A stretch of DNA of 64,000 nt from Centroscyllium fabricii (GCA_051313645.2 JBNRSN020000086.1:1922001-1986000); one strand, 5' to 3'. Counted from the stretch's first letter, positions 24,631-64,000 are shown. The notes: generated by a model from the sequence alone, not told the origin. Translations and numbers: made by a program.

Positions 24631-24635
24631 GGGTA

Positions 24636-26697: not shown

Positions 26698-26709
26698 TCG
26701 CGGTGTTGT

Positions 26710-29452: not shown

Positions 29453-29484
29453 TATATATGATATGTATAATTGCATTATGGTGT

Positions 29485-38490: not shown

Positions 38491-38544
38491 TCTTTCTGAC
38501 TGGCTGCCAACTTAGATTCACAGCCAAGATTCGTACCAGCGCTT

Positions 38545-39578: not shown

Positions 39579-41780
39579 TGCGTAGGCAATGGTATCATTA
39601 AAACAGATCCGGAAAGACCTCGCCCGCCCCAGGAGCTCCCTCCACCCAACAATCCGGCCCCCCTACGTCGGGCCCTCGGTCCGCCCGTACACTACGCCAA
39701 ATGGACTCCCAACCCCCCAGACAAAATTCAACCCCTACTGAACGCCAGAACATCTCCGCTGGGAACAGTGGCCGCCGCAGCCTTCAACCCCCTCAAAAAA
39801 CAGTCGGAGAAAGCGACTCCCCACCCCATCAACGAGGACCCCCCCCCCCGTAGTCGAATGCGACGCCCCGGAGGTGGCGATCCCGGCCACTGTAAACCAG
39901 CAAGGCCGTCCTGCAGCACCCATGTCCAGGACCCCACAAGGCGCCGAGATACACCACCCCCCGGCCGAGAAGAAAGCCACAGCCATCACAGAGGTGGCAC
40001 GGAAGTGGAACCACTTCCCAGCTCGCCGGCACCCCACACTAACCACGGACCAGCGTCCAGCCGCCCCCACGCTCGACAACCGAAAGTGAACCAAAATCAA
40101 GAACAACAAAACACAGCTTCGGAGGACGGAACTGGCCCCCCCCAGCTACACCACCCACCATCGACCTGGCAAGGAGAACGCGACCCGGATACCCCCACAC
40201 GAGCACTCCGCTCCGCTACGTCACCCTCCACTCCCACAGACATCCACGATGGACCGTGCCATCCCGGCGCGACTCGCATGCCACACTTCATGCGATCACG
40301 GAATCTCCCACTCTCCACCGGAGACACGAAGAAAATGTGCTCCGAGTGCCGAACCCGTGCAGAACCGAAACCCCAGCTCCCCTGCCCCCCAGATGGTGCG
40401 CTCACACACGCAACCCAACCGATGCAACGACCCAGCACCGACTCCAAGGGCCCACCGCCCTCCTCAACACGGAACACACGTCTGCTCACCATGATCGACG
40501 AACATCCACGATCTCCGTCCGCCCTCCCCCGCTCCAACACGCCGGCATCCACAGCAACCAACTGCCCCGAGCAAGCACTTTCTCTCTGTGGCATGGCGGC
40601 CCACACCCACCCAGATCGGGGCCCATCCCCCACGCCAAGCGAACTCAAGGACTACCCCTCAGAACGGGGAACCGCGACAAGCAAAACAACGCCACACCAT
40701 CCCATCGGAAACGGACAGGCAGAGAGACACAACAGCACCACCTGGAATTCCGTACGTCCTGCCCCAAGATCCCAGGGCCCACCAAACCAGCAATGGGAAG
40801 CAGTGCCCCCAGATGCACCGCACTCCCCACGGTCCCCTCCCTCCACAGCCACAAACACGACACCGCACGAACGGCTCCCCAGACTCCAGCGTCGCTCATC
40901 CCACGGGGCATCTCCTCCGCCACGGCTAACCACTCCCGGACCCGCACCGCTCCGAAGATACGCCCGGACATCCAAAGATGACCCCCTCGTGGACGAGATC
41001 GAACTAACCGATGTCAACCCCACCTATGCCCACATACGTTATCCCGACGGTCGAGAGTCTACCGTATCATTACGGGACCTGGCACCCTGCCCACCAGGAC
41101 CTAGAGGGACACCAAGTGTTAATATCCCACCAGGGGCCTCCAGGGACCCACCGGGCACCACCCTCCAGGACCGCGACCTGACACCAACCAACCCTGCGCC
41201 GGTAGAATCCCACACCCGAAGCCACGACCCGCCAAGCACCCCCCTCCAGGACACTGACCAGACCCCAACCGACTCCAAGCCCGCGGGGGCCCGCACACGG
41301 AGCCATGATCCTCCCGGTGCCCCACGCCAAAGCGCCAACTGGCCGCAGACCAGCTCTGCGCCTCCCCCCGACCAGGGACAGACCAGCCCTGCGCCAACCG
41401 GAGCTCGCACGCGGAGCCATGATCTCCCCGACCCCCCACAGGGCAATCCAGGCCACGCAGGTTCCGACCAGTGGCCAACAGCAGGCAAACTGTCCAGAGA
41501 CCCAGACACCGTCCAAATGGGCAGACCATCGACCCAGCAACGAGAACTCAAACGGGTGCGACGACTCCTTGTTCGGCCACTCCGGAATAAAAAGAAGATT
41601 CCCGCCTTCCAATTTTGTAGGAGGGAAGAATGTGGTGATACCGAACAAACATTCGGGGGAAGGCTGAATGGTGAACTCTGTACATGTCACTTCCTGTGCC
41701 CAGATAGCATAAATACTGGAACTGCTCAGTATGGGGTGGATGCTTCACCTGGAAGCATGGTAAAACCCACCTCTGCAAAT
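39579..41780 (+). pseudogene. Ty3/Gypsy pol fragment (RT end, RNase H, integrase) + PPT + start of 3' LTR; T->C hypermutated
   Basis: Restoring C->T recovers RRALGLF..YYAKWIPNF, ECDAS, EKKATAI, TDQ, IDFKGP, HSDRG and TPYHPIGNGQVER. NPTYAHIRYPDGRESTVSLRDLAP is intact. PPT aggagggaagaa is followed by TG at 41631. Confidence 0.9.
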
Positions 41781-42704
41781 TGTGACAATATAGTGGATTA
41801 CAACTTTACTTTAAAGTTATTGATGTATAAGACTCATCTATCACATCAATACCCATGCTGATGGAATAGATGGCATGTGAAATTGAGACGGCAGAAGCAT
41901 TCGGTCAATGGTGAGAGAGGTAATGAGGTCAGACTGGATGAAAATTTGTGTAAATAATTGCAGCATGGTGAATCTGTTGTGAAAATGCAGTGAGGAAGAG
42001 CTTGTGGCTGAGGGAAGATATCTCTAAGGTGGGAGCTTTTACTTTACATTTGAAGCTGTCAACTCAACAGCTGATTCAATGGTCACTGAACTCATGCCTC
42101 AGCTTGACAAACATGGTCCACGACAACCTGGACCCCATGGGTGAGCTGTCAAATGCAAAAGGTAAGCTGAAAATCATTTTTAAGTGGCTCTAAGCAAGCC
42201 ACTAATTATCTGAATTGGATCCCCTGCCACTGCGTGTCGGATCTACTCAGCGCTGACAGACCCGACATTGGGAAAGTCGTGTGGCGGTGGGTTCACAGCA
42301 GTGTCGCAACTCACTGCGGGAAAAAACACTTTCCCACCCGGCTCGCCACCGATCGCACCCGCTGACCCCCAGAAAATTCCGCCCTAAGTAATTACTCCCC
42401 AAGTCACAATGATTGATATGGCTATCTCAGAACACTACCTCGTCTCCCTTACTATTCACAGCTTCCTGGCTCCAACTCTGCTGACTTCACCCTCCCCCCT
42501 GGAAAATATTCCACACCTAGCCACTTCACCAATACAATCTGTATTCACCTCTCTTCACCCCTCCAGACATCGCTTGGCCGTTGACTAACTGAACAGCATC
42601 CTTTTTTGTCTTCAATACACTAATTCCTGCCAAGTCACTCACTATCTCTTAGCATCATTATTCACCATATTCCCTCCTTTGCACGACTGAGTTTGAGAGC
42701 CACA

Positions 42705-43183
42705 TTGGTTGGCGAGATACACCTCAATACTTGGTTGCCGAGGTACACCTCAATACTTGGTTGGCGAGGTACACCTCAATACTTGGTTGGCGAGATACAC
42801 CTCAATACTTGGTTGCCGAGGTACACCTCAATACTTGGTTGCCGAGGTACACCTCAATGCTTGGTTGGCGAGGTACACCTCAATACTTGGTTGCCGAGGT
42901 ACACTTCAATACTTGGTTGCCGAGGTGCACCTCAATACTTGGGTGCCGAGGTACACCTCAATACTTGGTTGGCGAGGTACACCTCAATGCTTGGTTGGCG
43001 AGGTACACCTCAATACTTGGTTGGCGAGATACACCTCAATACTTGGGTGCCGAGGTACACCTCAATACTTGGGTGCCGAGGTACACCTCAATACTTGGGT
43101 GACGAGGTACACCTCAATACTTGGTTGCCGAGGTACACCTCAATACTTGGTTGGCGAGGTACACCTCAATGCTTGGTTGCCGA
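42705..43183. repeat. 26-bp minisatellite, right part (about 18 units)
   Basis: Same unit and orientation as 38545-39172. Confidence 0.95.
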
Positions 43184-43387
43184 GAAAGGCACTATTTCTT
43201 GGCTGTCAAGGTTCGGACTTGCCGGGAGGGGGGTGCAAGATGATGGCTATGATTAGCTGTGAGTGTGTGACGGAGAGAAACATAATAAACCTGAGTGATG
43301 TTCTGTGAAATACGAGGCTCCATCACCTGAGTGCCATTGGAGGCTAAGTATGATTTTAACCCAAGAGCGCATAATGCGTTTGTATGA

Positions 43388-44630
43388 ATCGTGCCTGACC
43401 AACCTGATAGAATTCTTTGAAGAGGTGACCAAGTGTGTGGATGAGGGAAAGGCGGTTGATGTCATATATATGGACTTCAGCAAGGCGTTCGACAAGGTCC
43501 CGCACGGTCGACTCATGAAGAAAGTAAGGAGTTGCGGGGTAAACAACGAAGTGGTGGGATGGATTGAGAACTGGTTGGCTCAGAGGAAGCAAAGGGTAGT
43601 GGTAGAGGGCCAATACTCGGGTTGGAGACCGGTCACCAGTGGGGTACCACAGGGGTCGGTGTTGGGGCCACTACTATTTGTAATCTTTATCAATGACTTG
43701 GAGGAGGGGACTGAGGGGTGGGTCAGCAAATTTGCGGATGACACAAAGATTGGGGGAGTAGTGGATGAGGAGGAAGGAAGTAGAAAGATTCAGAGGGATA
43801 TAGATAGGATGCAGAGCTGGGCTGAAGAATGGCAAATGGAGTTCAACACGGGGAAATGCGAGGTGATGCACTTCGGTAGGGCAAATAGGAAGAGGGAATA
43901 TAGGGTCAACGGCAGGGTTCTGAGTGAAGCAGAGGAGCAAAGAGATCTGGGAGTATATGTACACAGATCATTGAAGGCTGCCACCCAGGTGGACAAGGCA
44001 GTAAAAAAGGCCTATGGTGTACTGGCCTTCATCAACAGGGGAATAGAGTTTAAGAACCGGGAGGTCATGCTGCAGCTGTACAGATCACTGGTGAGACCAC
44101 ACTTGGAGTACTGTGTGCAGTTCTGGGCACCGTACTACAGGAGAGATGTGGAGGCGCTGGAGAGGGTGCAGAGGAGATTCACCAGGATGTTGCCGGGAAT
44201 GGGGGGAAAGTCGTACGAGGAGAGGTTGAGGGAGCTGGGACTCTTCTCCCTGGAACGGAGAAGGAAGAGGGGGGACTTAATAGAGATGTTTAAAATGATG
44301 AAGGGGATCGATAGAGTAAACGTGCAGAGACTGTTTCCCCGGGTGGGAAGAATGACAACAAGAGGGCACGAGCACAAGATTCAAGGAGGAAGATTCAGAA
44401 GGGATGGCAGGGGCAAGTTCTTTACGCAGAGAGTGGTCGGGGAATGGAATAGGCTACCATCTGAAATAGTGGATGTGGACAGTCTGGGTGCTTTTAAAAG
44501 GATGATAGATAGGTACATGGAGGGGAAGGAAGAGTAGGGGGGACAGGAAAAATCAGAGACAGACTAAGCGCGGCACTACATTGAGGGCCCAAGGGCCTGT
44601 ACAGTGCTGTATGTTCTATGTTCTATGTTC
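43388..44630 (+). mobile_element. Young 5'-truncated CR1 LINE (uninterrupted RT ORF to 44537)
   Basis: [13 protein letters not shown]...FADDTK...MEGKEE* and (atgttct)n tail. Confidence 0.93.
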
Positions 44631-44999
44631 CCTTGTTTGCCATTTTAACGGAGTTGAATCCCGGACCAACTCGTTCCCTGTGGCGTGCTTGCGAGGGCAA
44701 AGGTGACTGGACCTATGGTTCCCAAAGCTCCCCAGCACTGGGGCTTTTCTTCTGTAGTAGACCAATTGATAGAGATTGATTGCTACGGTTGCAAACACAC
44801 AAAATAGACAGGCAGATCCATCGAGCCTGCCCCGCACCCTGATGGCCGGAGCATCGTGGCTGAACACTTTATGGCCAAAATGAGTTTTTTTTTTGATGAA
44901 ACGCATGAAGATGTAACAGATCATCAGACTGGGCAGAAGCTCATTGACTACACTGGATACTCCCGTGTGCAAATGGACTCGGGGTCCAGGTTCATAGAT

Positions 45000-47250
45000 C
45001 ATTAAAATATCATGAACAGGTACAGAAAATAATCAAAAGGGCTAATGGAATGCTGGCCTTTATATCTAGAGGACTCGAATACAACAACAAAAGCTTATAT
45101 TTATACAGTGACTTTAATGTAGTAAAACATCCCGAAGTGCTTCACAGGCGTATTATAAGACAAAAAATTGACACCGAGGCACATAAGAAATTAGGGCAGA
45201 TGAGGAGGTAGGTTTTAAGGCGCATCGTAAAGGAGAAATGAGAGGCAGAGAGGTTTAGGGGGGAAATTCCAGAGCTCGGGGCCCAGGCAGCTGAAGGCAC
45301 GGGCACCAACGATTGAGTGATTATAATCAGGGATGCTCAAGCGGGCAGAATTAGAGGAGCGCAGATATCTCGGGGGAGTGTGGGGGGTGCTCGTTGTGGG
45401 GCTGAAGGAGATCACAGAGATAGGGAGGGGTGAGGCCGTGGAGGGATTTACAAGCAAGGATGAGAATTTTGAAATCGAGGCGTTGCTTAACCGGGAGCCA
45501 ATGTAGGTCAGCGAGCACAGGGGAAATGGGTGAACGGGACTTGGTGCGAGTTAGGACAAGGGCAGCCGAGTTTTGGACGACCTCAAATTTACGTAGGGTG
45601 GAATGTGGGAGGCCAGCCAGGAGTGCATTGGAATAGTCGAGTCTCGAGGTAACAAAGGCACGGATGAGGGTTTCAGCAGCGGATGAGCAGAGGCAAAGGC
45701 AGAGACGGGCGATGTTACGGAGGTGGAAATAGGCGGTCTTAGTTATGCCACGGATATGTGGTCGGAAGCTCATTTCAGGGTCAAATATGACACCAAGGCT
45801 GCGAACAGTCTGGTACAAGGGGGTAGAAGTTATGCTCCAGCTATACAAAGCCCTGGTTAGACCACACCTGGAGTACAATGAGCAGTTCAGGGCACCACAC
45901 CTCAGCAAGGATATATTGGCCTTGGAGGGAGTGCAGTGTAGGTTTACCAGAATGATACCCGGACTCCAGGGGCTAATTTATGAGGAGAGATTACACAAAC
46001 TGGGGTTGTATTGCCCAGAATTTAGAAGGTTAAGGGGTAATTTGATTGACGTTTTCAAGATATTAAGGGATACAGGTTGTGCACCGTTAATCCGGCACCT
46101 GATAATTCAGCACCTTCAGTGGTCCGGCACGAATCTTGCTGGCCGGCCCACGTGATCCCAGGGACGCTCGAGATGCGCGGGCCTCTCTCCGGCAGCACCC
46201 CGCGATGCGCGGGCCTCTCCCCGGCAGCACCCCGCGATGCGCGGGCCTCTCTCCGGCAGCACCGGAGAGTCCCAGGACCGCAAATCCCATTCCCTCACTC
46301 TTTAACTGGTCTGCGCATGCACAGTGGCCATTTTGACTGGTCTGCGCATGCGCAGCAGCCATTTTGACAGGTCTGCACATGCGCAGTGGCCATTTTGACT
46401 GGTCTGCGCATGCGCAGTGGCCATTTTGACTGGTCTGCGCATGCGCAGTGGCCATTTTGACTGGTCTGCACATGCGCAGTGGCCATTTTGACAGGTCTGC
46501 ACATGCGCAGTGGCCATTTTGACTGGTCTGCGCATGCGCAGCAGCCATTTTGACTGGTCTGCACATGCGCAGTGGCCATTTTGACAGGTCTGCACATGCG
46601 CAGTGGCCATTTTGACTGGTCTGCGCATGCGCAGTGGCCATTTTGACTGGTCTGCGCATGCACAGTAGCCATTTTGACTGGTCTGCACATGCGCAGTGGC
46701 CATTTTGACTGGTCTGCGCATGCGCAGCAGCCATTTTGCCAGGTCTGCGCATGCGCAGCAGCCATTTTGACTGGTCTGCACATGTGCAGCGGCCATATTG
46801 ACTGGTCTGCGCATGCGTAGCGGCCATATTGACTGGTTTGCACATGCGCAGCGGCCATATTGACTGGTCTGCGCATGCGCTCCCCGAACCTTCAGTGGTT
46901 CGGCATTTTCAGTAGTCCGGCACCGGCCTGGTCCTGAGGGTGCCGGATTAACGGTGCACAACCTGTATTAACCGCTGGTTACTGAGTCTAGGACTACGGG
47001 GCATAGTCTAAAAATTAGAGGCAGGCCTTTCAGGTGTGAAATTAAGAAACATTTCTACACACTAAGGGTGATAGAAGTTTGGAACTCTTTTCTGCAAACG
47101 GCAATTGATAGATCAATTGTTAATTTAAAATCTGAGACTGCTAGAATTTTGTTAAGGGATATGGGACAAAGGCGGGTATATGGAGTTCGGTCGCAGATCA
47201 GCCCTGATCTCAGTGAATGGCGGAACAGGCTCGAGGGGCTGAATGGCCTA
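45000..47250 (+). mobile_element. Older CR1 3' fragment interrupted by L2 (-, 45081-45810) and a MITE
   Basis: ANGMLAFISRGLEY|KGVEVMLQLYKALVRPHLEY. The L2 carries AFVTSRLDYSNALL...LHWLPV. Confidence 0.85.
46073..46965. mobile_element. Tigger/pogo-like MITE with about 18-19 x 31-bp internal array (46303-46880)
   Basis: TA TSD and perfect TIR. Unit gactggtctgcgcatgcgcagtggccatttt. Confidence 0.92.
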
Positions 47251-49661
47251 CACTCTGTGTTCTTTTAAGCACCGGTATGTCCTTGCAGAACAAAAGGCTG
47301 TCGACGCAGCACACCCAAGCTCACCCCGAGCTCTCTCCCCAACACACGACCTCACCACGACCTCTCTCACCAACACACCTGAGCTCAGTTGGTAGCACTC
47401 TCGCCTCGGAGTCAGAAGGTTGTGGGTTGAAGTCCCACTCCAGAGACTTGAGCACAAAATCTAGGCTGACACTTCAGTGGGCTGGAGCGTTTCAGCTATG
47501 AAGAGAGACTGGACAGGCTGGGGTTGTTTTCCTTGGAGCAGAGAAGGCTGAGGGGGGACCTGATTGAGGTGTACAAAATTATGAGGGACATAGATAGGGT
47601 AGATAGAAAGGAACTTTTCCCTTAGTAGAGGGCTCAATAACCAGGGGGCATAGCTTCAAGGTAAGGGGCAGGAGGTTTAGAGGGGATTTGAGGAAGAACT
47701 TTTTCACCCAGAGGCTGGTTGGAATCTGGAACTCACTGCCTGAAAGGGTGGTAGAGGCAGGAACCCTCACAACATTCAAGAAGCATTTAGATGAGCACTT
47801 GAAATGCCATAGCATACAAGGTTACGGAGCAATCGCTGGAAAATGGGATTAGAATAGACAGGGCTTGATGGCCGGCGCCGACACGATGGGCCGAAGGGCC
47901 TCTTTCTGTGCTGGATAACTCTGTGACTCTGCAGTACTGAGGGGTGTGCCGTCTTTCGGATCTGAGGCACCATCTGCTCTCTCAGGTGGACATAAAAGAT
48001 CCCATGGCATTTTTTCGAGGAAGAGCTTGGGTAGTTATCCCCGGTGTTCTAGCCAATATTTATCCCTCAATCAACATCGCTAAAACAAATTATCTGGTCA
48101 TTATGACATTGCTGTTTGGGGGAGCTTGCTGTGCGTAAATTGGCTGCCGCGTTTCCTACATTACAGCAGTGACTACACTTCAAAAAAAGTACTTAATTGG
48201 CTGTAAAGTGCTTTGGGACGTCCAGTGGACGTGAAAGGCGTTATAGAACATAGAACATACAGCACTGTACAGGCCCTTGGGCCCTCAATGTCGTGCCGCG
48301 CTTAGTCCGTCTCTGATTTTTCCTGTCCCCCCCTACTCTTCCTTCCCCTCCATGTACCTATATATCATCCTTTTAAAAGCACCCAGACTGTCCACATCTA
48401 CTATTTCAGATGGTAGCCTATTCCACTCCCCGACCACTCTCTGTGTAAAGAACTTGCCCCTGCCATCCCTTCTGAATCTTCCTCCTTGAATCTTGTGCTC
48501 GTGCCCTCTTGTTGTCGTTCTTCCCACCCGGGGAAACAGTCTCTGCACGTTTACTCTATCGATCCCCTTCATCATCTTAAACATCTCTATTAAGTCCCCC
48601 CTCTTCCTTCTCCGCTCCAGGGAGAAGAGACCCAGCTCCCTCAACCTCTCCTCATACGACTTTCCCACCATTCCCGGCAGCATCCTGGTGAATCTCCTCT
48701 GAACCCTCTCCAACGCCTCCACATCCCTCCTGTAGTACGGTGCCCAGAACTGCACACAGTACTCCAAGTGTGGTCTCACCAGTGACCTGTACAGCTGTAG
48801 CATGACCTCCTTAAACTCTATTCCCCTGTTGATGAAGGCCAATACACCATAGGCCTTTTTTACTGCCTTATCCACCTGGGTTGCAGCCTTCAATGATCTG
48901 TGTACATATACTCCCAGATCCCTTTGCTCCTCTGCTTCGCTCAGGACCCTGCCGTTGACCCTATATTCCCTATTACTATTTGCCCTACCGAAGTGTATCA
49001 CCTCGCATTTCCCCGTGTTGAACTCCATTTGCCATTCTTCAGCCCAGCTCTGCATCCTATCTATATCCCTCTGAATCCTTCTACTTCCTTCCTCCTCATC
49101 CACTACTCCCCCAATCTTTGTGTCATCTGCAAATTTGCTGACCCACCCCTCAGTCCCCTCCTCCAAGTCATTGATTGTTGAGGCCTGCAAGGCTGAAGGA
49201 CCACGCTGGACACAGAGAGGTTGAATGCAGAGTTTTTATTAACTACTTGTTACAGCTAGGGCCAGGTAGGGAGAAAGAGAGAGAGCCACCTGGCTCTCAG
49301 ATATTTAAAGGTCCCGCGGCTGGGGACGTCACTGCCGGCTGGCCTCCTGGTGACGTCATCACGTCGGGGAAGTCCGTGCGTCCTCCGACGGGCGGGGCCG
49401 CTTTGCAGCCTTCCCAGCGCGGGTTCGTGGCTGCCGGTGGGCGTGTCGCCACACAGCTCCCCCCCAGAATCCGCGAGGGGAAGTGTAGTTTCCTAGAGGA
49501 GAGGGAGACAAAAAGGAGAGCAGACACACATTTCGATTACACACAGAATGTCCGACAGTTTGCCGCAATGGCCTGGTGTTGTGGCCGGCAGGTGTTGTGT
49601 GCTGTTCCGTGGTTCGAAAGATGGTGTTGTGGCGGGCCGTCTATGCTCTGCCCGTGTCGCC

Positions 49662-52600
49662 TCAGGCGAGGCGCTTGGGTGGCCTGATGGTACGGCCGGC
49701 ACGTGTGATGTGTTGCTTGTTGGTCTGTGTGGGAGTGTGGGCGGGTTTTGGTGCGGTAGGGCGGCCGCGTTTAGGTGGTTGTGCGGGGACTGTTGTCTCG
49801 CCCGCCATTACGTGTGCTGGTTTGAGCCGGTCAATGGATACGGTCTCAGTTCTGTTGCCCATTTGAATGTCAAAAGTCTTGGGTCCCGCCCGAAGCACTC
49901 TAAATGGCCCGTCGTACGGTGCCTGCAGCGGTGCTTTGTGAGAGTCATGGCGGACAAACACGTACTTGGCGTCCTGAATGGTGTTGGGGACGCGTGTCGC
50001 CGGTTGACCGTGGCGGGCCACCGGAAGTGGTTTGAATTCTGCTGCCTGGTTGTTGAATTCCCTGAGGCAGCGCTCGGCCGACCAGGGTTCGTTTGTTTCT
50101 GCGACGAACTCGCCTGGTACGGTTAGTGGTTGGCCGTAAACGAGTTCGGCTGCCGAGGCGTGTAGATCTTCTTTGGCCGCTGTGCGGAGGCCGAGCATTA
50201 CCCAGGGCAGGCGGTCCGTCCAGGTTGCGTCCTGGAGGCTGGCCCGCAGGGATGTTTTAAAAGTTCGGTGGAACCGTTCGCAGAGGCCGTTGGCTTGCGG
50301 GTGGTAGGCAGTGGTTCGGTGCAGGGTTACCCCAAGGTCGTGAGCGATGGTTGACCATAGAGTTGAAGTGAATTGGGGGCCCCTGTCTGAAGTAATGTCG
50401 TTGGGGACGCCGAAGCGGGCGACCCAGGTGGCGATGAAGGCCCTGGCCAGTTCGGCGGTGGTGGTCGTGTTGAGGGGGACCGCTTCAGGCCAGCGGGTGG
50501 TGCGGTCGACCATTGTGAGGAGGTACAAGTGTCCACGTGATGGGGGTAGTGGTCCAACCAGGTCGATGTGCACGTGGCTGAAGCGTCTGGCTGGGATGGC
50601 GATTGGTTGGAGCGGTGCTTTGATGTGTTTGTGCACCTTGGCTCGCTGGCAGGCATTGCACGAGGTGGTCCAGGCGCGGACATCTTGTTTTAGGCCGCGC
50701 CAAACGAATCGCGCAGAGATGAGCTTGGTGGATGCGCGGACGCCGGGGTGGGAGAGGCCGTGGAGGGTCTGGAAGATGTGCTGCCTCCACGCGAGGGGCA
50801 CCACGGGCCTGGGTTGGGGCAGGGTGACGTCGCAGCGGACCGCCGTGGCTGTGGGTCCGTGTGCTACGGTGGCCAAGAGTAGGCCGGGAAGTTTGTTGGT
50901 GGGGTCGAGGAGGTCGGGATCGCTGAGTTGGTCGGCCGCCATTTTGACGTAGTCGACCGCGGTCTGGACAGTGTTGGTGGTTGGGAATGCGCAGCAGTGT
51001 GCGCAGGCGCGGTTGGTGGCTGGGGTTGGGGGGTGGTCGGCGGTTTGGGTGCCGGTTGTGCCTGCGCTGCTGATGGCGGGGCCCGCGGGGTGGTCGGGGT
51101 TGGGCTTGTGAATGGCGGGTCGTGAGAGGCAGTCGGCGACCACGTTGTCGCGGCCGGCAATGTGCTGGATGTCGGTCGTGAACTCGGACACGGCCGCGAG
51201 CTGGCGCTGCTGCCTGGCCGACCAGGGTTCGGAGAGCTTAGCCATTGCGGAGACTAATGGTTTGTGGTCCACAAATGCTGTAAAGTGGCGGCCCTCTAAA
51301 AGGAAGCGGAAGTGGCGCACTGCGAGGTAGAGAGCGAGTAGCTCCCTATCGAAGGCACTGTACTTGACCTCTGGGGGCCGGAGGCGGCGGCTGAAAAAGG
51401 CCAGTGGTTGCCATGAGTCGCCCGACCACTGCTCGAAGACTGCTCCGACAGCGTGGTCGGAGGCGTCGGTGGTGAGGGCTACTCTGGCGTTGGGCCTGGG
51501 GTGGCTGAGGAGGGTGGCTTTGGCAAGGGCCGTTTTGGTTGCGGTGAAAGCGGTGGCGGCTTCGGCCGTCCACTCGACCGCGGTCTTGTTGGATTGCCCG
51601 TGGGTGGCCTGGTAGAGGGGGGCCATGAGGGCGGCTGCGCCGGGGATGAAACGGTTGTAAAAATTAACCATTCCAAGGAATTCCTGCAGCCCCTTGATGG
51701 AGTGCGGGCGGGGGAATTCCTGGACCGCCTGCACCTTGGAGGGCAGGGGTATGGCCCCGGTGTGGGAGATGTGGTGGCCGAGGAAGTCAATAGCCTCGAG
51801 GCCGAATCGGCATTTGGAGGGGCTTAATATGAGGCCGTGGTCGGCCAGGCGTTTAAAAAGGGTTCTGAGGTGGATGAGGTGTTCCCGGGGGGAGGCGCTG
51901 GCCACCAGGATGTCGTCGAGATAGACGAATGTGAACTGGAGGTCCCGGAGGACTGAGTCCATGAGGCGCTGGAAAGCCTGGGCCGCGTTTTTGAGTCCGA
52001 AGGGCATCCGGAGAAATTCAAATAGGCCGAATGGGGTGATGACGGCTGTCTTAGGGACATCCGCCGGGTGCACTGGAACTTGGTGGTAGCCCCGTACCAG
52101 GTCGATCTTTGAAAAGACCGTGCAGCCGGCTAGCCTCACGGAAAAATCCTGGATGTGGGGGACTGGGTACCTATCCGGGGTGGTGGCGTTGTTGAGGCGG
52201 CGGTAGTCTCCGCAGGGGCGCCAGCCGCCATCGGGTTTAGGGGCAATGTGGAGGGGGGGAGGCCCAGGGGCTGCTGGAGCGGCGGATGATGCCGAGCTGT
52301 TCCATGATGTGAAACTCGGCTCGAGCGATCTCTAGCTTGGCCGGGTCCAGCCTGCGTGCGTGGGCGTGGACCGGGGGGCCTGTGGTGGTGATGTGGTGCT
52401 CTACGCCGTGCTTGGCGGAGCGGGCTGTGAAGGTGGGGTTGGTTAGGGTGGGGAACTCGGCGAGCAGCGTGGCGTACGTGTCGGAGTTGCGGGCCCGGCA
52501 GTGAGCTGCCGCGTGGGTCTGGTGTGCTGGGGCTGTGGAGCCCGGAATGGTCGACATGATTTGGATGTCGACCAGGCGGCGCCGGGTAACATCGACAAGG

Positions 52601-52985
52601 AGCCCGTGGGCGCACAGAAAGTCGGCTCCGAGTAGGGGCGTGTTAACCTGCGCGGTGATGAAGTCCCACGTATACCTGTGGCCTGCTAGTTTAATGGTAA
52701 GCTGGCGGGTACCGAACGTGAGTATCTCGGAGACGTTTGCGGCTTCGAGTGGTGGGCCTTGGGTGCCCTGCTTGGATTCTGCGGGGGAGGCTGGCACGAT
52801 GCTGTGCTGCGCGCCTGTGTCGCAGAGGAAACGGAGGCCTGAGACACTGTCTGTAACGAAGAGCAGCGCTCCGGAGCGGCCGACGCACATGGTGGGGCTG
52901 GGGCAGGTTTGGGGTTTGAAGTTGCAGGGCGGAACGCAGCGCTGCGCTTTGGCCTCAAACCTGGTATGGTAGTAGCACCAGCCGG
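49662..52985 (-). CDS. pol: Gypsy NC-protease-RT-RNase H-integrase polyprotein (one frameshift in a C-run at about 52255)
   Basis: LCDTGA, YLDD, TDAS, HHCC zinc finger, HIDLVGP, SDRG, ERF, GPF. Confidence 0.92.
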
Positions 52986-53506
52986 TTGCCGCGGTGCGTG
53001 GCTTTAATGAGCTTGTCTGCCTCCTGAGCTAGCTGCCTGTTTGAGAGGTGCTCCAAGACCGTCAGTGTCGGTCTGATGGAGGGCGGCAGCTTAAGGAGGT
53101 AGAGGGCGCGCTTAAGGGTGTCTGAGTCGCGATTAAGCGCCTCGAACTGGGCCCACAAGTCGGTGGGGTCTGCATCTCCCAGGTCGGGGAGGTTAATGAC
53201 CTGGCAATCGCGCTCGAAAATGGTTGGGGTAAATTTTGCGAGCAGCGCGGCCTTTAGCGATTCGTACCTGCCAGCAGAAGTGTCTTCCTCGATGGTGTCC
53301 CACATTCTGTCGATGGTGGACTGTGCGAGGGCTGCGAAGAGCAGGCTGTAGCGGTCGTCTGCGTGCACGCCATGAATGCGGAAGGTGTTCTCGGTGTTGC
53401 GAAACCAAGCCGCTGGACGGAGCTCCCAGAATTGTGGTATGGTTGGGACCGGGAGGTAAACTTGGCCCCGTCTGCCTTGGCGTGCTGAGTCGGTTGCTGC
53501 TGGCAT
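52955..53506 (-). CDS. gag: Gypsy gag capsid region
   Basis: IPQFWELRPAAWFRNTE...YESLKAALL...LGDADPTDL, typical of CsRn1-type gag. Confidence 0.85.
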   Translation of the reverse strand: MPAATDSARQGRRGQVYLPVPTIPQFWELRPAAWFRNTENTFRIHGVHADDRYSLLFAALAQSTIDRMWDTIEEDTSAGRYESLKAALLAKFTPTIFERDCQVINLPDLGDADPTDLWAQFEALNRDSDTLKRALYLLKLPPSIRPTLTVLEHLSNRQLAQEADKLIKATHRGNRLVLLPYQV

Positions 53507-55256
53507 GGTGGTATCGATTCGGCTGCGGCAGCTTGTCCCTCAGTCCTGCAGTGGCTGCTTCATTGTTCACCTGAGAAACGTCTCAGGTATCGGGGTCACC
53601 AGTGTTGAGGCCTGCAAGGCTGAAGGACCACGCTGGACACAGAGAGGTTGAATGCAGAGTTTTTATTAACTACTTGTTACAGCTAGGGCCAGGTAGGGAG
53701 AAAGAGAGAGAGCCACCTGGCTCTCAGATATTTAAAGGTCCCGCGGCTGGGGACGTCACTGCCGGCTGGCCTCCTGGTGACGTCATCACGTCGGGGAAGT
53801 CCGTGCGTCCTCCGACGGGCGGGGCCGCTTTGCAGCCTTCCCAGCGCGGGTTCGTGGCTGCCGGTGGGCGTGTCGCCACATGATAAAGATTATAAATAGT
53901 AGTGGCCCCAACACCGACCCCTGTGGCACCCCACTGGTGACCGGTCTCCAACCCGAGTATTGGCCCTCTACCACTACCCTCTGCTTTCTCTGAGCCAGCC
54001 AGTTCTCAATCCATCCCACTACTTCGTTGTTTACCCCGCAACTCCTTACTTTCTTCATGAGTCGACCGTGCGGGACCTTGTCGAACGCCTTGCTGAAGTC
54101 CATATATATGACATCAACCGCCTTTCCCTCGTCCACACACTTGGTCACCTCTTCAAAGAATTCTATCAGGTTGGTCAGGCACGATTTGCCCTTAACGAAT
54201 CCGTGCTGACTGCTCCTGATTAATTTGCCCCTTTCTAGATGGTCGTAGATCCTGTCCCTCAGGACCCTATCCATCACCTTTCCGACCACCGAGGTAAGGC
54301 TGACTGGTCTGTAGTTCCCTGCCACGTCCCTGCTCCCCTTTTTAAATATGGGAACCACATTCGCCTCTCTCCAGTCCTCAGGGACTATCCCCGAGGATAG
54401 CGAGGAACTAAAGACAGTTATATGAATGCAAGTCTTTATTTCTTTCTCTCCCCGAGTTCTCTCTCTACCCCAACACACCTGAGCCTGGCCTCACTCTCCA
54501 GATCACGATCTGGATCCCAAGTCCAACTCCAGCCTTTCTGCACTCCGACAATCTCGAGCCAATCATCCTTGAGCCAGCAGAAGAAGATGTTTGCAATTAG
54601 TGTATTGTGCCAATCATCCAGATACCATCAATAATGCATCAGTGTGGTCTAATTATTAGCATAACACAGTGCGTTGGCACCCAGTGCTGGCAATTATAGC
54701 CCCTCGTTGGCTGCTAGATATTTGCTGATTACTACATTTTAAGCGGCGCCAGTTAATCGTGTTTTATGACCAGTCTATTACCGAGCTAACAAAGGTTACT
54801 TTTATTTATTTCCCCCAGCCCCACCACCCCTCTTGCTTCCCTCTTAATGAAACTCTCCTAAAATTGCATGAAAAGCATTTTGGGGAAAGTGCACTCGGCT
54901 GCTGCCCTCCGGCTACAGATTAGCGCACAGTCTGAACCCATGAATCTTTCATGTGCTCACTGCTGCGTGTGATGGTACTCCCGATGCGAAGCAGCCACAC
55001 AGAGCTGACGGGAACAGGTGACTTGAAGTTCATGTTTTATTCAGTTCAAGCTGGTATTTTTGATTTTTTTTTTTTGCGGGGCGCAGGTAGGACTAATTCA
55101 GGTCAGGGCGCCCACTTCCGACATCCTTCGCTCGCGGGCCTTTTGGTGAATGATGCAGCCATGATACCGAGTCAGCAAGGAGAGGTGAACTGGCTCTGAT
55201 GGTGCGAATTGGAGTCACGTTCAACTTGTTGTTTCATGACATAGAGCTACACAGTA

Positions 55257-55710
55257 CAGGTTGAGCACCATTAATCCGGACACCGAGTGTCCGGCAACTT
55301 CAAACGTCTGGCACGAATCTGGCCGACTGGTGCGCGCATGCGCAAAATGGCCGCCGCGCTTGGCTGCGCATGCCCAGGCCTCTCCCCGACTGCCCTGCGC
55401 ATACGCAAAATGGTGGCTGCGCATGTGCAGACCAATCGGGGAGGCCTGTACCTGTACCAATATGGCCGCCACGCTTGGCTGCGCATGCCCGGGCCCCTCG
55501 GCGAGCGCATGCGCAGTCCAATCGGGGAGGCCTGTACCTGTACCAATATGGCCGCCGCGCTTGGCTGCGCATGCGCATACCATTCAAAATTTCGCAGCGG
55601 CCATTTTGAATGTTCTGCGCATGCGCTCGGCGAACTTCAATCATCCGGGTTTTTCAAGGATTCGGCACGGTCCTGGTCCCAACCATGCTGGATTAACGAA
55701 GCTCAACCTG
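55257..55710. mobile_element. Tigger/pogo-like MITE
   Basis: TA TSD, TIRs, and internal gcgcatgcgc / aatggccgcc repeats. Confidence 0.85.
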
Positions 55711-56087
55711 TAATTTACGGCACAGAAACAGACCATTTGGCCCATGCCGGTGTTTATGCTCCACACGAGCCTCCTCCCACCGTACTTCATCTCATCCTGT
55801 CAGCATAACCATCTATTCCTTTCTCTCTCGTGTATATATCGCTTGCCCCTTAAATGCATCTGTGCTATCCACCTCAACTACTCCCTGTGGTAGCAAGTTC
55901 CACATTCTCACCATTCTCTTGGTAAAGAAATCTTGCCTGAATTCATTGTTGGATTTATTCGTGACTCTGTTATATTTCTACTTCTTTTGTTTTTATTTCG
56001 GGTAAGACATGACAGCAAGCCTGTTCGTCGGAGCTGCATCTGAAAGAGGCTCTGCTGTTCCCCAGACACTACGCTGCGAGTGTTTCA

Positions 56088-56101
56088 GTAACCATGGCAA
56101 C
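56088..56101. promoter_or_regulatory. RFX X-box motif (candidate)
   Basis: GTAACCATGGCAAC, a near-perfect palindromic X-box, in non-repetitive DNA. Confidence 0.45.
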
Positions 56102-56454
56102 TAAACCTGTCCCCTGCTGTCAGTAACTTTTGAAGTCTGCTGCCGGTAGCAGCAAGCCCGAAGAACAAGAGGTTCGGAGATGGGGTGGGGGGGGCGGAGT
56201 TTAAAGTTCAGGTGGAACGCTGCCATCGCTTTGGTAATTTAGTTCGGCCGGAGCCGGTCATGTTTTCGAAACGATCCGCGAAAGAAACAAATGGATCAGC
56301 TGTCTGAGTGGGTCCGGAATCAGGGACATGAACACCAACTCCCAGTGACGGGGAGGCTGATGTAGATTCTCTCGTCAGTTCGACGCCCGTGTCGTTTTTG
56401 CAGCATCTGACACCGTTTTGATGAAAGATAAAACCACAAATGTTTGCAAGCCAG

Positions 56455-56920
56455 GAATGAAAAAGACTTGCATTTATATAGTACCTTTCATGACCAGCAA
56501 ATGTCCCAAAGCGCTTTACAGTCAGTGAAGTACTTTTTGAAGCGTAGTCACTGTTGTAATGTAGGCCACGCGGCAACCAATTTGTGCACGGTAAAGTCCC
56601 ACAAACAGCAATGTGATATTGACCAGGTAATCTGTTTTTTGGTGATGTTGGTTGAGGGCCAAATATTGACCAGGACACCGGGGATAACTCTCCTGCTCTT
56701 TTTCAGAATTGTGCCATGAGATCGTTTACGTCTGCCTGAGAGAGCAGACGGGACCTCGGTTTAACATCTCATCCGAAAGATGGCACCTCCGACAGTGCAG
56801 CACTCCCCCAGTCCTGCACTGGAGTGTCAGCCGAAATTATGTGCTGAAGTCTCTGGAGTGGGACTTGAACCCACAACCTTGTGACTCTGAGGCGAGGGTG
56901 CTACCCACCGAACCACAGCT
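56455..56920 (-). mobile_element. SacSINE1-like DeuSINE, full length (a degenerate + copy follows at 57030-57330)
   Basis: Reverse complement of the 29485-29942 family. Confidence 0.85.
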
Positions 56921-58787
56921 GAAGTTGTCTGGAAAACTCAAAGCCAGGCACAAGTCAAGTCAGCCACTGGAAGGGAAACGGCATGCTGATGTTTGGGTGG
57001 GAGCTTTCCCCAGGTTTTGGCCTGCCCCTCGCGCTTCTGAATCAGGAGGTCGTGGGTTCGAGCCCCTGCTCCAGAGGCTAGAGCGCATAATCCAGGCCGA
57101 TACTCCCAGTGCAGGGGAGTGCTACCCGACGTCCTGGCCAATATTTACCCCTCAACCAACACATAAAAACAGATAATCTGGTCATTATCGCTGTTTGTGG
57201 GGCCATGCTGAGTGCAAAGTGGCTGCCCCGTTTCCTATATTACAACAGTGACTACACTTCAAAAAGAAAATTCTTAATTGGCTGTAAAGTGCTTTGGAAT
57301 GTCCTGAGGTTTTATAAATGAAAGTCCTTTTTTCATTTCTAGTATGTTGTTTGTTTATGGTTCATGTTATTCTCCAATCTTTCCTCACATTATCTCTCTG
57401 TGTCTCTGCACTGTCCTACTCAGGGCAGGTAGTCCAGATGGGAACAGCTGCATAGGTGTCAACCTAGGTTGATCCAACGAGTGAGAACCTGTACGGATTG
57501 TGGGCAAGGAACTTCTGTCCTGGTGACCTCCCTTAAGATTGGCGCCCTTCACACTCCCCCGCCCCCAACCTTTCAGCCCACCTTAGCAACGCTCCAATAT
57601 TAATTTCAGATGAGGCAGGGATTTGGATTCAGGTCCCCCTTGTGCTCTGGCTGCTGCATCGCTCTCTTTGAATATTTGAATAAAATTATCACAATGATCC
57701 AAAACATTGCTCACTGACATGGTCTCATCAGCAGCTCTCCACGTCCCCCATTCCAACCCCCCCCCCCAATAATAGACCATCATCTCTCCACTAACCTCCC
57801 ACCGACAGCCACTATAAGACCCTCGGTCGGAGGGGCTTTGCTTTGGAAAAATGGCTATTTGAAACTGTCCAAACAATGCTTCAAACACGCACAGTGCAAC
57901 AGTCAGGAAATCTCATCCAGCCAACAGGCAGATTCTAATTGCGAAACAGCAAGTGGCATTATGCTGCGTTATGTTAATAATTAGGCCAATGCTGATACAT
58001 TATTGATGGGGATCTGTATAATTGGCACAATATGCTAATGCTCTTCATTACATTGCACAGAGGGGGCCTCACTCAATCAGAGTGCTGCGATCTCAGTCAG
58101 CTGATACCGGTGCCTCTAAGCCTGCTGTTTTTGCTGCCCCTCCAGTCAACCAGTAGTTGAAGAGTATTCACATCATCTCACCATGCCAATAAACCAATGT
58201 TGGGTTCGGTTCAACAACTAAATTATCTTAATGTATTCAAAATATTGTTCCCATCAAATTTCACTGCACAGGAGAAACACATTCACCAATCTAACAACTA
58301 CAAGCTCATACTGTTTTCAACTACCTCTAAATGCTTCAATACTGGAGATGGTAAAACTCTTAAGTGATGCAATGAACTGCAACAACAGTGTGACAGACTT
58401 TAAGAGGCCACTCGGCATTAAGGCCATTAGTCACCGACTTCGCTGACTGACCTGCGGGAGTAGTTTTTCCTATTTACTGCAGGATAAACACAGCTGCTCA
58501 AAGAAAGAAGGAACTTGCATTTATATAGCGCCTTTCACGACCTCAGGGCGTCCCAAAGGCCTCCCTGACACTGCAACGATGAGAGCAGAAACTTGAAGTT
58601 ATCCTCGGATAATGACCCTTTGACACATTAGGGTAGTTGAGCACTGTAAATCTTTGGGTATAATATGCACTTTCCCTCATCCCAACAAAAAATTATGTTA
58701 AAAGGTTTACGCAAACAAACTACTAAATAACCATTTATCAATTTGTTTAGTTCACTACTAGGCTTGAATCCAAATCCCAGCTTCTAA

Positions 58788-58930
58788 AATGTAAGAAGTC
58801 ACACAACACCAGGTTATAGTCCAACAGCTTTATTAGAAATGAGTGATTTCTAATAAAGCTGTTGGACTATAACCTGGTGTTGTGTGACTTCTTACATTTG
58901 TCCACCCCAGTCCAACACCGGCATCTCCAC
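58788..58930. mobile_element. Penelope-type inverted terminus (perfect hairpin)
   Basis: About 54-bp perfect arms around a gagtg loop. Same family as 23101-23303 but lacking the ribozyme core. Confidence 0.8.
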
Positions 58931-58939
58931 CTCCACAGG

Positions 58940-61900
58940 ACGGTGTGACCATGAGTGAGGCAGGTAGTGGGAACCAGGAGGTAGTGTTGGAGGAGCCGCA
59001 GCCCCTGCTCCTGTCCAACAGGTTCGAGGTTCTTACTCCCTGTGGTGACAGGAGCAGGGACTGCAGGGAGGATGAGCAACCTGGCCACAGCACCGTGGAA
59101 CGGGGGGCCATTCAAGAGGGGGGAATAAGTAGAAACGTTGTAGTGGATAGTATTATTAGGGGGATAGATAGAGTTCTCTGCAGCCGAGAGCGAGAGTCCC
59201 GAAGGCTGTGTTGCCTACCCAGTGCCAAGGTTAAGGACATCTCCTCTGGGCTGGAAAGAAACTTGCAGTGGGAGGGGGTGGATCCAGTTGTTGTGGTCCA
59301 TGTTGGAATAAACGACGTAGATAGGACTAGGAAAGAGGTTCTGTTAAAGGAGTATGAGTAGTTAGGGTTAAATTAAAAAACAGAACCTCAAGGGTAATAA
59401 TCTCTGGATTACTACCTGAGCCACAAGCAAATTTGGCAAGGACAAATAAAATTAGAGAGTTGAATGCGTGGCTCAAAGACTGGTGTGGGAGAAATGGGTT
59501 TTGCTTCCTGGGACACTGGCACCAGTACTGGGGCAGGAGGGAGCTGTACCGTTGGGACGGGCTCCACTTGGCCAGTGCTGGGACTACAGTCCTGGCGAAT
59601 CATATGTAACCCTTTCACGGTTCTTTAGATATATGTGAGATGTGGTCTCTGTTATATGCAGTATTCTATAGTCCAGTAAGGAGGTCACTTACTACAATGG
59701 CTTAATTCTAATTATCTTACTTTATAGTTTTAACATCAAACAGTATAAGAAGATTACAGGTCAATGAACTAAATTAGACATTTGTGTACATTGGAATGAA
59801 TCTAGACATAATAAACATACATTCCCCATTTACATGGATTCAAAGGAGAATCTGTCCCTGTGTCCAAATTTGAGTGCACTCTAGAATTTGTTCAATTAAC
59901 ACAACCTGTATCAGGCCTCTTTCGTTGGCGCGCTTAAGTTGGAGCTCATGGTATGTATAATGTCTGCAAGACTTATGACTCCGAACCCCTTCGTTGAATT
60001 CTCTTCACGATCACTGGATCCCACTTTGAGTTCTGGATGCAGAGCACACATCAGCAGCTGGAGTTGGTGACTCTCTCTCGCACGACGATCCCCCGGTACT
60101 GGTGACTTGCAGCCGGCCAGTTCAGGATGCAGTGCTACTAATAAGAAGGGCGGCGACCGAGTTTGGAAGCCCGGGACAGGATGCAGCAGCCATTTGCCTC
60201 CTGAACCCTCTTCAGAGCTCCTGTCCTCTCCTCTTCCAGTCTGTGTCTCCAGCTCTGGCCGTTGTCTCTCCGCCCCCAAAATGTAACCCCGAGGGTCACA
60301 TGGGGCCTGTTTTTCCCGCCGAAACAGGTCAGCTGTCCTAGGGTTGCTGCTGGAGACTGCAACAGTTGCACATTGTGTTCTTAAAAGTTCTTGCTGTACT
60401 TTCACATTGGCAACTTTAACCCAGGGATTTATAGCAATGATAATAGTGTCTAAGTTAAACATTTATAATGTAACATTTTCAGTGGGTATTACATATAACT
60501 AGGGCTGTAGAGAGGGCTATAAACTAACTAGTGTGGGGGGGGAGGTTCCTGGAGAGCAAATAATAAAAATAACAGAGAAGGTCATAGAGTTAGGTAGCAG
60601 TGGGGAAGTTAAAATCCAGAGCGTGTCAGGAAGGGACAGAAGGTATGGAGTAAAAGGTAAAGTAATAAAAAAGGAAAAAGCAGGAACAAAGTGTCACAAA
60701 ACATATTTGAAAGTTCTCTATTTGAATGCACGTAGCATTCGTAACAAAATAGACGAGTTAATGGCAGAAATAACTACATATGGGTATGATCTTGTGGCCA
60801 TTACAGAAACATGGCTGCAGGGTAGCTATGCCTGGGAATTAAACATACCAGGTTATTTAACGATCAGGAAGGACAGGAAGGAAGGGGAGGTGGGGTGGCT
60901 ATGTTAATAAAGGAAGGAATCACTGTAATACAGAGAAATGATATTGGGTCAAAAGATCAGGATAATGAAACAGTTTGGGTGGAGATAAGGAACAATAAGG
61001 GGGAAAAAACACTAGTTGGCGCAGTCGATAGGCCTCCAAACAGTTGCAACTCTGTTGGATGGAGTATCAATCAAGAAATAGTCGAGGCTTGTAATAAGTG
61101 AACATCTATAATTATGGGGGATTTTAACTATCATATAAATTGGACAAATCAAATTGGGCAGGGCTGCCTTGAGGAGGAGTTCATTGAGTGTATTAGGGAT
61201 GGGTTTCTTGAGTAGTATGTAACTGAACCGACCAGGGGGCAAGCAACCTTAGATCTGGTCCTGTGTAATGAGACAGGATTAATTAAAAATGTCCCAGTAA
61301 AGGATCCCCTTGGAATGAGTGACGATAACATGGTTGAATTCCATATTCAATTAGAGAGTGAGAAGGTTGGATCTCAAACAAGCGTGCTAAGCTTGAATAA
61401 AGGAGACTATGAAGGTATGAGAGAGGAATTGATTAGAGTGGATTGGGAAAACAGATTAAAGGGTAAGACGATACACGATCAGTGGTGTACATTTAGAAAG
61501 TTACTTTACAACTTCCAAAAAATATATATTTCACTGAGAAGAAAAGGGTGTAAAAGAAAAGACAGCCATCCGTGGCTAAGCAACAAAATTAAGGATAGTA
61601 TTCGACAAAAAACAAGGGCATATAAGGTAGCCAAAACTAGTGGGAGGATAGATGATTGAGAAAACTTTAAAAGACAGCAAAAACAACAAAAAGATTGATT
61701 AAGAAAGGGAAGATAGATTATGAAAGTAAATTAGCAAAAAATATAAAAACAGATAGTAAGAGTTTCTATAGTTATACAAAAAGAAAAAGTGTGGCTAAAG
61801 TAAATGTTGGTCCCTGAGAGGATGAGACTGGGAAATTAATGGTGGGAAATATGGAGATGGCAAAAACACTAAATGAATATTTTGTATCAGTCTTTACAGT

Positions 61901-63737
61901 AGAGGACACTAAGAATATCCCAACACTGGACAAACAGGGGACTATAGGGGGGGAGGAGCTAAACACGATCAAAATCACTAAGGAAGTGGTACTCGGTAAA
62001 ATAATGGGGCTCAAGGCGGATAAATCACCTGGACCTGATGGCTTGCATCCTAGGGTCTTGAGGGAAGTAGCGGTAGGGATTGTGGATGCATTGGTAATCA
62101 TTTTCCAAAACTCCCTGGTCTCAGCAAAGATCCCGGCAGACTGGAAAACTGCTAATGTAACACCCTTATTTAAAAAGGGCAGTAGACAGAAGGCTGGAAA
62201 CTATAGCCTAACATCTGTCGTGGGTAAAATTTTGGAGTCCATTATTAAGGAGACAGTAATAGGACATTTGGATAAACATAATTTAATAGGACAAAGTCAT
62301 CATGGTTTTATGAAGGGGAAGTCTTGTTTGACAAATTTGTTGGAGTTCTTTGAGGAAGTAACATATAGGGTGGATAAAGGGGAACCCGTGGACATAGTGT
62401 ATTTAGACTTTCAAAAGGCATTTGACAAGGTGCCACACAAAAGATTATTGCTTAAAATAAAAAATCACGGAAGTGGGGGTAATATTCTGGCATGGATAGA
62501 GGATTGGCTATCTAACAGAAGGCAGAGAGTTGGGATAAATGGTTCATTCTCAGACTGGCAATTGGTAACTAATGGTGTTCCGCAGGGGTCAGTGCTGGGT
62601 CCCCAACTCTTTACAATCTATATAAACAATTTGGAGGAGGGGACCGAGTGTAACATATCAAAGTTTGCAGATGATACTAAGATGGGAGGGAAAGTAGTGA
62701 GGGAGGAGGACATAAAAAACCAGCAAGGGGACATAGACAGGCTAAGTAAGTGGGCAGAGATTTGGCAGATGGAATACAATACTGGAAAGTGTGAGGTTAT
62801 GCACTTTGGCAGGAAAAATCATAGAGCAAGTTGTTATCTTAATGGCAAGAAACTGGAACGTACTGTAGTACAAAGGGATCTGGGGGTCCTGGTGCACGAA
62901 ACTCAAAAGGTTAGTATGCAGGTGCAGCAAGTGATTAAGTGATTAAGAAGGCCAATGGAATGTTGGCTTTCATTGCTAGGGGGATAGAATATAAAAATAG
63001 GGAGATATTGCTTCAGTTGTACAAGGTATTGGTGAGACCGTACCTGGAATACTGCATACAGTTTTGGTGTCCATACTTAAGAGAGGACATACTTGCTCTC
63101 GAGTCAGTACAAAGAAGGTTCACTTGGTTAATCCCAGGGATGAGGGGTTGGACATATGAGGAGAGGTTGAGTAGATTGGGACTCTACTCATTGGAGTTCA
63201 GAAGAATGAGGGGCGATCTTATTGAAACATATAAGATTGTGAAGGGGTTGGATCGGGTGGACGCGGGGAGGATGTTCCCAATGATGGGTGAAACTAGAAC
63301 TAGGAGGCATAATCTTAGAATAAGGGGCTGTTCTTTCAAAACTGAGATGAGGAGAAACTACTTCACTCAGAGGGTAGTAGGTCCATGGAACATGCTGCCC
63401 CAAAAATCTGTAGAAGCTACATCATTACATAAATTTAAAACAGAAATAGACAGCTTCCTAGAAGTAAAAGGGAATAAGGGTTACGGGGAGCGGGCATGAA
63501 TTTGGACATGAGTCTAGGTTCAGATCGGTCATGGCCCTGTGGGTAGTGGAGCGGGCCCAGGGACCGTGTAGCCTGATCCTGCTCCTATTTCGTGTGTCTA
63601 ATTCTGTTAGATTCAGGAGATGGTTCTGTGATAGTAGATTGGTGGTTAGGATCAGATCAGCCATGATCTTATTGAATGGCGGAGCAGGCTCGAGGAGCCG
63701 ATTGGCCTACTCCTGCGCCTATTTCTTATGTTCTTAT
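58940..63737 (+). mobile_element. Near-full-length CR1 LINE: ORF1 esterase-like domain + ORF2 (APE-RT), disrupted
   Basis: ORF1 DSIIRG...CCLPSAKV...VHVGIND...DGLHL. ORF2 YLNARS, ITETWL, GDFN, SDDN, QSHHGF, FADDTK. Several stops and frameshifts. 3' tail. Confidence 0.92.
59605..60493. mobile_element. 889-bp TG..CA-bounded insertion in CR1 ORF1 (solo-LTR-like, unclassified)
   Basis: Ends tgtaac...attaca, flanked by TA. Removing it restores the ORF1 frame (aat cat ata act agg). Confidence 0.6.
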
Positions 63738-63849
63738 CCTCTAAAATTCATATTGGAGCTTTACTGAGATGGTGGGAGGAACCCCAATCTCAAAGGAGAT
63801 TTCCTCCAACGATCAGGTTTCTGCCCAGCCACGGTACTGAAACGGCCCT

Positions 63850-64000
63850 TATCAAAGTCACAAGTGACACCCTATGTAACTGCAACCATGGTAAACTATC
63901 CCACCTTGTCCTTCCCGACCTGTCTGCAGCCTTTGACATGGTTGACCACACCATCCTTCTCCAACGCCTCCCCTCCATCGTCCACTTGGGTGATTTTTAT
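63850..64000 (+). mobile_element. L2 LINE RT fragment
   Basis: STETALIKV...LVLPDLSAAFDMVDHTILLQRL. Confidence 0.8.

Follow-up and report, generated by a model that had tools for sequence, protein, structure and literature searches.

Intronic RNA duplexes and the inverted pair in DPH1

The editing-complementary sequences of GRIA2, GRIK2 and CACNA1D are imperfect intronic duplexes that extend over kilobases and have a coding exon as one arm. The inverted pair analysed here, from the 7.2 Gb genome of Centroscyllium fabricii, is likewise an imperfect duplex over kilobases, but both of its arms lie deep in an intron and neither overlaps an edited coding exon. As the nearest exons are more than 54 kb away (58 kb to exon 4 and 54 kb to exon 5), a role as editing-complementary sequence for a coding exon, raised in the original prediction, is unlikely.

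The closer likeness is to the PCCRs (2021, PMC8052449), which are two conserved intronic regions less than 10 kb apart and complementary on the sense strand. The arms studied here are intronic, within one gene and on its transcribed strand, are separated by 3,294 nt, and are both conserved in four other organisms. Their predicted duplex of -89.0 kcal/mol lies well past the PCCR limits of at least 10 nt and below -15 kcal/mol, and it shares with group IV of the catalogue an energy far below -30 kcal/mol. The PCCR catalogue is human, whereas the present pair is found in C. fabricii, 54-58 kb from coding exons, and has the look of an inverted duplicate some 150 bases long. Five supplementary files of PMC8052449 gave no row for DPH1.

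A functional precedent is provided by exon 3b of BRD2 and exon 5b of BRD3 (Petrova et al. 2024, PMC10789245), where a conserved duplex encloses a conserved stop-containing exon in its loop, as a candidate exon is enclosed here. For BRD2 and BRD3 both inclusion of the exon and its control were demonstrated with antisense oligonucleotides and compensatory minigenes; the exon described below is predicted only, and its host is a gene for a diphthamide enzyme. The non-repetitive duplexes of the human dsRNAome, for example in SON (Andrews et al. 2025 preprint, PMC11838218), are also long imperfect helices in non-repetitive conserved sequence. Their medians are 65 bp, 77% paired bases and 14 contiguous pairs; compared with these human duplexes the arm pair is more stable (-89 versus -42 kcal/mol) and has a longer loop (3,294 versus 233 nt). 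DPH1 is mentioned 0 times in the main text of that preprint, and a literature search found no published report of a conserved RNA duplex in DPH1. The Hox inverted repeats of PMC4470032 are unrelated. The arm pair is real and conserved, and we put at roughly even chances that it is a further case of a known kind of intronic RNA duplex.

The arms, their host intron and their loop

The window, the whole stretch of 64,000 nucleotides that was analysed (C1444:1922001-1986000), is made up mostly of repeats. The host intron and the paired segments are:

1..64000, + strand, intron 4 of DPH1, 115,681 nt long and holding the entire window (flanking exon matches)
54596..54669, + strand, core of arm 1 (window self-alignment; present in organisms B, C, D and F)
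54670..54730, + strand, inner extension of arm 1, with patchy pairing (alignment and fold)
57901..57963, + strand, inner extension of arm 2 (alignment and fold)
57964..58039, + strand, core of arm 2 (window self-alignment; conservation falls just beyond its edge)

Exons of a diphthamide synthase lie on the + strand of contig C1444 at 1592434, 1621254, 1918304, 2034107, 2041624 and 2179361, with exon 4 ending at C1444:1918425 and exon 5 starting at C1444:2034107. The contig carries matches to Pfam PF01866 and, at 2.58 Mb, an OVCA2-like gene; a PDB search backs the diphthamide-synthase family for exon 4 only, and a second such search gave 0 matches. The gene is called DPH1, and its exons are numbered, by likeness to the human exons. 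Since the window lies wholly within intron 4 on the + strand, that strand is the transcribed one, and this follows independently of any count of wobble pairs.

Arm 1 core matches the reverse complement of arm 2 core at 82.9% over 76 columns (E 1.1e-12, blastn within the window). On the + strand the core duplex comprises 63 Watson-Crick pairs in 76 columns, six G-U pairs, three A-C mismatches, two other mismatches and two one-base bulges, and a recount of the alignment reproduced exactly the tally given in the original prediction. Its longest run is 28 uninterrupted pairs, G-U counted. The energy of -89.0 kcal/mol compares with -21.4 +/- 4.5 kcal/mol for 300 shuffles of arm 2, the best of which reached -35.4. 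The patchy pairing that had been placed outward of the cores (gcaatta/taattgc and gttggctg/cagccaac) actually lies inward of them, between 54670-54730 and 57901-57963, where 38 Watson-Crick pairs in about 66-67 columns give -43.1 kcal/mol, a value matched by 0 of 300 shuffles. Pairing is denser in the core than in this inner extension (63/76 versus 38/66, P = 0.001). When the entire 3.6 kb was folded, the minimum-energy structure contained a helix of 116 pairs between the arms. The local fold of 54560-55060 is unremarkable (z = 0.76), and the window holds 0 Rfam matches at gathering score.

The excess of G-U over A-C had been read as the signature of an RNA duplex and as an argument for + strand transcription. 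Any transition between inverted arms gives a G-U pair when one strand is read and an A-C mismatch when its opposite is; the six to three ratio in the core has P = 0.51, and the energy gap of -5.6 kcal/mol in favour of the + over the - strand was equalled in 31% of 500 simulations of decayed repeats. In the inner extension the trend is reversed, with five G-U and 11 A-C, and a SINE-like inverted pair inside the loop has 15 G-U and nine A-C. Because every transition yields G-U or A-C according to strand and the counts are non-significant, the excess is no evidence for strand or for RNA pairing and was rejected as a signature. The + strand itself was correctly called, as the host gene shows.

The loop between the arms holds several further elements:

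55255..55712, no strand assigned, MITE-like insertion with 23-bp terminal inverted repeats and little or no cover in four relatives (window repeats and depth of cover)
55712..55977, no strand assigned, high-copy repeat fragment (window repeats and depth of cover)
56088..56101, no strand assigned, X-box-like (RFX) palindrome (motif match)
56453..56922, no strand assigned, SINE-like repeat, left member of a nested inverted pair (repeats and fold)
57028..57340, no strand assigned, SINE-like repeat, right member of the same pair (repeats and fold)

The nested SINE pair forms a helix of 261 pairs in the fold. Loop length has likely changed, because the MITE-like insertion has little or no cover in relatives. 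The description of the region as unique-looking DNA thus suits the arms and holds only in part for the loop with its MITE-like insertion, repeat fragment and SINE-like pair. The looped-out segment does contain the X-box that had been predicted, as a motif resembling the consensus.

Conservation, substitutions and alternative origins

In the 21 sequencing runs listed, none of them recorded as RNA, the share of words in common was 0.74-0.82 for organism A (four runs), 0.20-0.22 for B, C and D, and 0.09 for F. Contigs were aligned to 54420-58492 at 85% likeness from one run each of B, C, D and F, and to 57895-58055 at 80% likeness from B, D and twice from F (one sample). As C and D are near-identical, these amount to about three independent lineages. 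The arms have a depth of about 1-19, against 10^4-10^6 over repeats, and stand at single-copy depth in B, C, D and F; arm 2 at 80% likeness gave one contig per run in 4 of 4 runs. In each of B, C and D a single contig spans the block around arm 1, with 20-23 differences in about 834 positions, and a second spans the block around arm 2, with 53-54 in about 1211.

Within arm 2, B and D differ from C. fabricii at two of 161 sites, compared with 51 of 1050 over the remainder of that contig (P = 0.037), and at none of the 76 core sites, against a background of about 4%. F, the most distant of these organisms, has eight differing sites and one gap in the 155 positions aligned over 57895-58055, five of the eight being among the differences listed. 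Three of these sites fall in the 76-base core, against eight of 30 just outside it (P = 0.002, for a region picked after the data were seen); at a scaled neutral distance of roughly 14%, three or fewer in 76 has P = 0.008. Arm conservation, as originally supposed, is therefore seen in this alignment, and by these sequence comparisons arm 2 is evolving several times slower than its flanks.

The substitutions bear on the pairing itself. Taking partner bases in relatives as equal to those of C. fabricii, five of the eight substitutions among those listed make a Watson-Crick pair, one turns a Watson-Crick into a G-U pair and two remain mismatched, so that none breaks a pair on the + strand, while two would do so on the - strand; a one-base deletion in F takes away a bulge. 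Compensatory double changes number 0 among these eight, and 40 of the 221 differences over 54420-58492 are listed. A random change in arm 2 is harmless 53% of the time, giving five in a row a naive P of 0.04; the support for pairing is weaker than this figure, because changes on the C. fabricii lineage look restoring by construction. Since it separated from F, that lineage seems to have acquired five changes that weaken pairs and are uncompensated (at 54659, 57951, 57990 and 57997, and the base at 58012), and such changes are also expected from slow decay of two independently conserved copies.

This last pattern leads to the strongest competitor, in which a DNA control element, an enhancer core for transcription-factor binding, is present twice in the form of the arms, their inverted orientation being incidental and RNA pairing a by-product. 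We consider this somewhat unlikely. It fits the lack of compensatory change among the substitutions listed, and also the fact that conservation around arm 1 extends over a longer block (54543-55256, with 58 differences in 714 in F), in addition to the low divergence of B, C and D there. The arms are rich in short motifs typical of enhancers, which counts against the duplex reading. The X-box-like motif in the loop is conserved, with no shared substitution between 56014 and 56170 among those listed, while C and D lack 7 nt at 56106. Human DPH1 is moreover listed in PMC6906185 among the bystander genes of a regulatory block, with HIC1 and RTN4RL1 among its predicted targets. Against this connection, the HIC1-like gene and matches to the mir-132 family sit on contig C756, away from DPH1, and 0 of 111 BTB matches fell on C1444 when 150 of 213 candidates were scored; the separation may be a real break or a matter of assembly. 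A crude search of 270 kb upstream of exon 2 likewise returned no RTN4RL1-like motif. The conservation of arm 2, which ends where the arm ceases to match arm 1, also speaks against twin enhancers. If they are nevertheless what the arms represent, the locus would be a modest case of local enhancer duplication.

The arms may alternatively be functionless, being either the eroded terminal inverted repeats left by an ancient DNA transposon or a neutral inverted duplication within a genome that evolves slowly, an explanation to which we give little credence. Low-copy inverted pairs are common nearby (of nine low-copy pairs spaced 300-4100 bp apart within 464 kb, seven are inverted, the arm pair included), and the mismatches build up without compensation, as a neutral remnant would predict. 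Further copies are missing, however: an exact 24-base pattern shared by the arms has two matches in 7.2 Gb, both of them the arms, with 0 in the control. When up to three mismatches were allowed it matched 15 times genome-wide (control two); the 13 additional matches were discarded as homologues, as none extends past the motif and eight of them are members of a single young repeat family. Two further DNA searches recovered the query arm without its partner and are too insensitive to carry weight. A search with a profile built from both arms found the arms alone in 464 kb, blastn gave no matches to them in 1.2 Mb of flanking loci, and two metagenome scans for distant homologues returned 0 and 0, within searches that a family more than about 25-30% diverged or of fewer than about 20 copies could escape. 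The dispersed copies of a transposon's terminal inverted repeats were thus not found, and two copies genome-wide together with single-copy depth in relatives rule out a high-copy repeat, in agreement with the initial remark that neither arm resembles the repeats recognised in the window. A target-site duplication of at least 7 bases is absent at the outer ends, where the matches are just 5-6 bases long and do not abut the ends of the arms, although an old one would decay. The slow evolution of arm 2 relative to its flanks also counts against a neutral remnant.

Long, well-paired helices suit ADAR, and the length and the 28-pair run would fit a duplex kept mainly for selective A-to-I editing at A-C mismatches affecting intron processing. 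This is improbable, even though PCCRs are enriched in editing sites (PMC8052449), given that no coding exon lies near enough for recoding, that the A-C mismatch 54637/57997 is a Watson-Crick pair in F, and that conserved human dsRNAs are rarely edited, with 81 of about 1,500 having any site (PMC11838218).

A candidate poison exon inside the loop

Just inward of arm 1 the + strand carries the signals of a possible exon:

54786..54818, + strand, candidate 3' splice site with a CTAAC branch-point-like motif, pyrimidine tract and AG (signal scoring and relatives)
54819..55017, + strand, candidate frameshifting poison exon of 199 nt (signal scoring)

The CTAAC motif (54786-54790) begins 56 bases inward of the arm 1 extension, the AG stands at 54817-54818 and the donor at 55017. 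Spliced after exon 4 in phase 1, the predicted 199-nt exon would bring a stop nine codons in, and it has stops in all three frames. On our own matrices the acceptor scores 7.1, compared with 5.9-9.9 in four real exons, and the donor 4.3. In 104 kb, an acceptor, a branch point and a donor of this strength come together at two places on the + strand and at one on the - strand, with thresholds set from the candidate itself, and of the rival acceptors in or just past the loop four are stronger (8.0-9.5) and one is weaker (6.2). Among the differences listed, relatives keep the splice signals, with a C to T change in the branch motif and insertions of pyrimidines into the tract, and substitutions shared between relatives are absent from 54790-55014; as 40 of the 221 differences over 54420-58492 are listed, species-specific changes in arm 1 or in the AG or GT of the candidate exon may be among the rest. 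A cryptic poison exon named 3b, with an inclusion of 0.01, is reported for human DPH1 in PMC11632617; it was rejected as the same element, since by its name it lies in intron 3 and the candidate lies in intron 4.

The reading we prefer, to which we assign about as much belief as doubt, is that the arms form a conserved intronic RNA duplex by pairing in the DPH1 pre-mRNA. The earlier proposal of a functional pre-mRNA structure that loops out a segment keeps its intronic position on the + strand, the low copy number and the conservation of the arms, and loses its wobble signature. The arms likely arose long ago, when about 150 bases were duplicated locally in inverted orientation. They would pair co-transcriptionally in vivo, under selection for the pairing, and loop out 3.3 kb, with the nested SINE helix shortening the loop further. 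Pairing may then hold down the splicing-in of a cryptic exon that contains a stop and begins 90 bases inward of arm 1, as for BRD2 and BRD3 (PMC10789245). Within the duplex reading, this step of poison-exon suppression would be about half as probable as the duplex.

The arms offer a clean test case for separating RNA-level from DNA-level constraint in complementary conserved elements. Should the duplex be real, it would join the few conserved duplexes that control poison exons as an unusually long, stable and deeply intronic example, and its recognisable inverted duplicate would illustrate one route by which such structures arise. It would also place such control in a housekeeping gene of translation, for which we found none in print in the case of DPH1. 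The full picture remains tentative and on balance rather unlikely: a helix of about 116 pairs, which arose when part of a conserved element was duplicated in inverted orientation and which several shark-like lineages have retained, would switch a poison exon of DPH1 and so bring diphthamide synthesis in cartilaginous fishes under the control of an RNA structure far from any coding exon.

Size of DPH1 and the exon 4 donor

In C. fabricii, DPH1 extends over at least 850 kb (G000:C1444:1592434-2444857) and includes introns of 297, 116 and 138 kb; human DPH1 is about 14 kb. The donor closing exon 4, at position 6425 of the stretch L042, is very weak (-2.2 on our own matrix) and is followed by the 116-kb intron.

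Other signals and mobile elements in DPH1 intron 4

Besides the candidate poison exon and the X-box-like palindrome at 56088-56101, the window carries the following features:

5642-5725: open-frame exon candidate of 84 nt, lying in unique sequence of DPH1 intron 4; its acceptor is strong (10.5)
10887-12479: frames that we take to be a hAT-like transposase, a name based on motifs
14383-18883: mobile element, presumably Harbinger-like, whose frames are of transposase and Myb-like type, likewise named from motifs
26684-26697: another X-box-like palindrome, in unique DNA of DPH1 intron 4
49175-53880: Gypsy-type LTR retrotransposon with gag- and pol-like long frames on the - strand
55086-55087: acceptor-like AG with an immediate donor-like GT, preceded by a T run
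58787-58899: perfect palindrome, 54 bp, with a 5-nt spacer

The AG/GT at 55086-55087 lies close to the middle of intron 4 and, as judged from its sequence, resembles a recursive splice site. The Gypsy-type element is inserted in a CR1-like fragment and is bounded by two identical LTRs of 278 bp each, and an 88% copy of it is carried by L013, another stretch of DNA.

DPH1-related sequence and gene order elsewhere in the genome

A region on another contig (G000:C1155:186799450-186799672) matches positions 2-73 of the diphthamide-synthase family PF01866 contiguously and contains one stop, and is possibly a processed pseudogene. The HIC1-like gene lies on C756, as do the hits to the mir-132 family (90206344 and 90630412-90656175). 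DPH1-OVCA2 is carried by a different contig, a placement unlike the human gene order.
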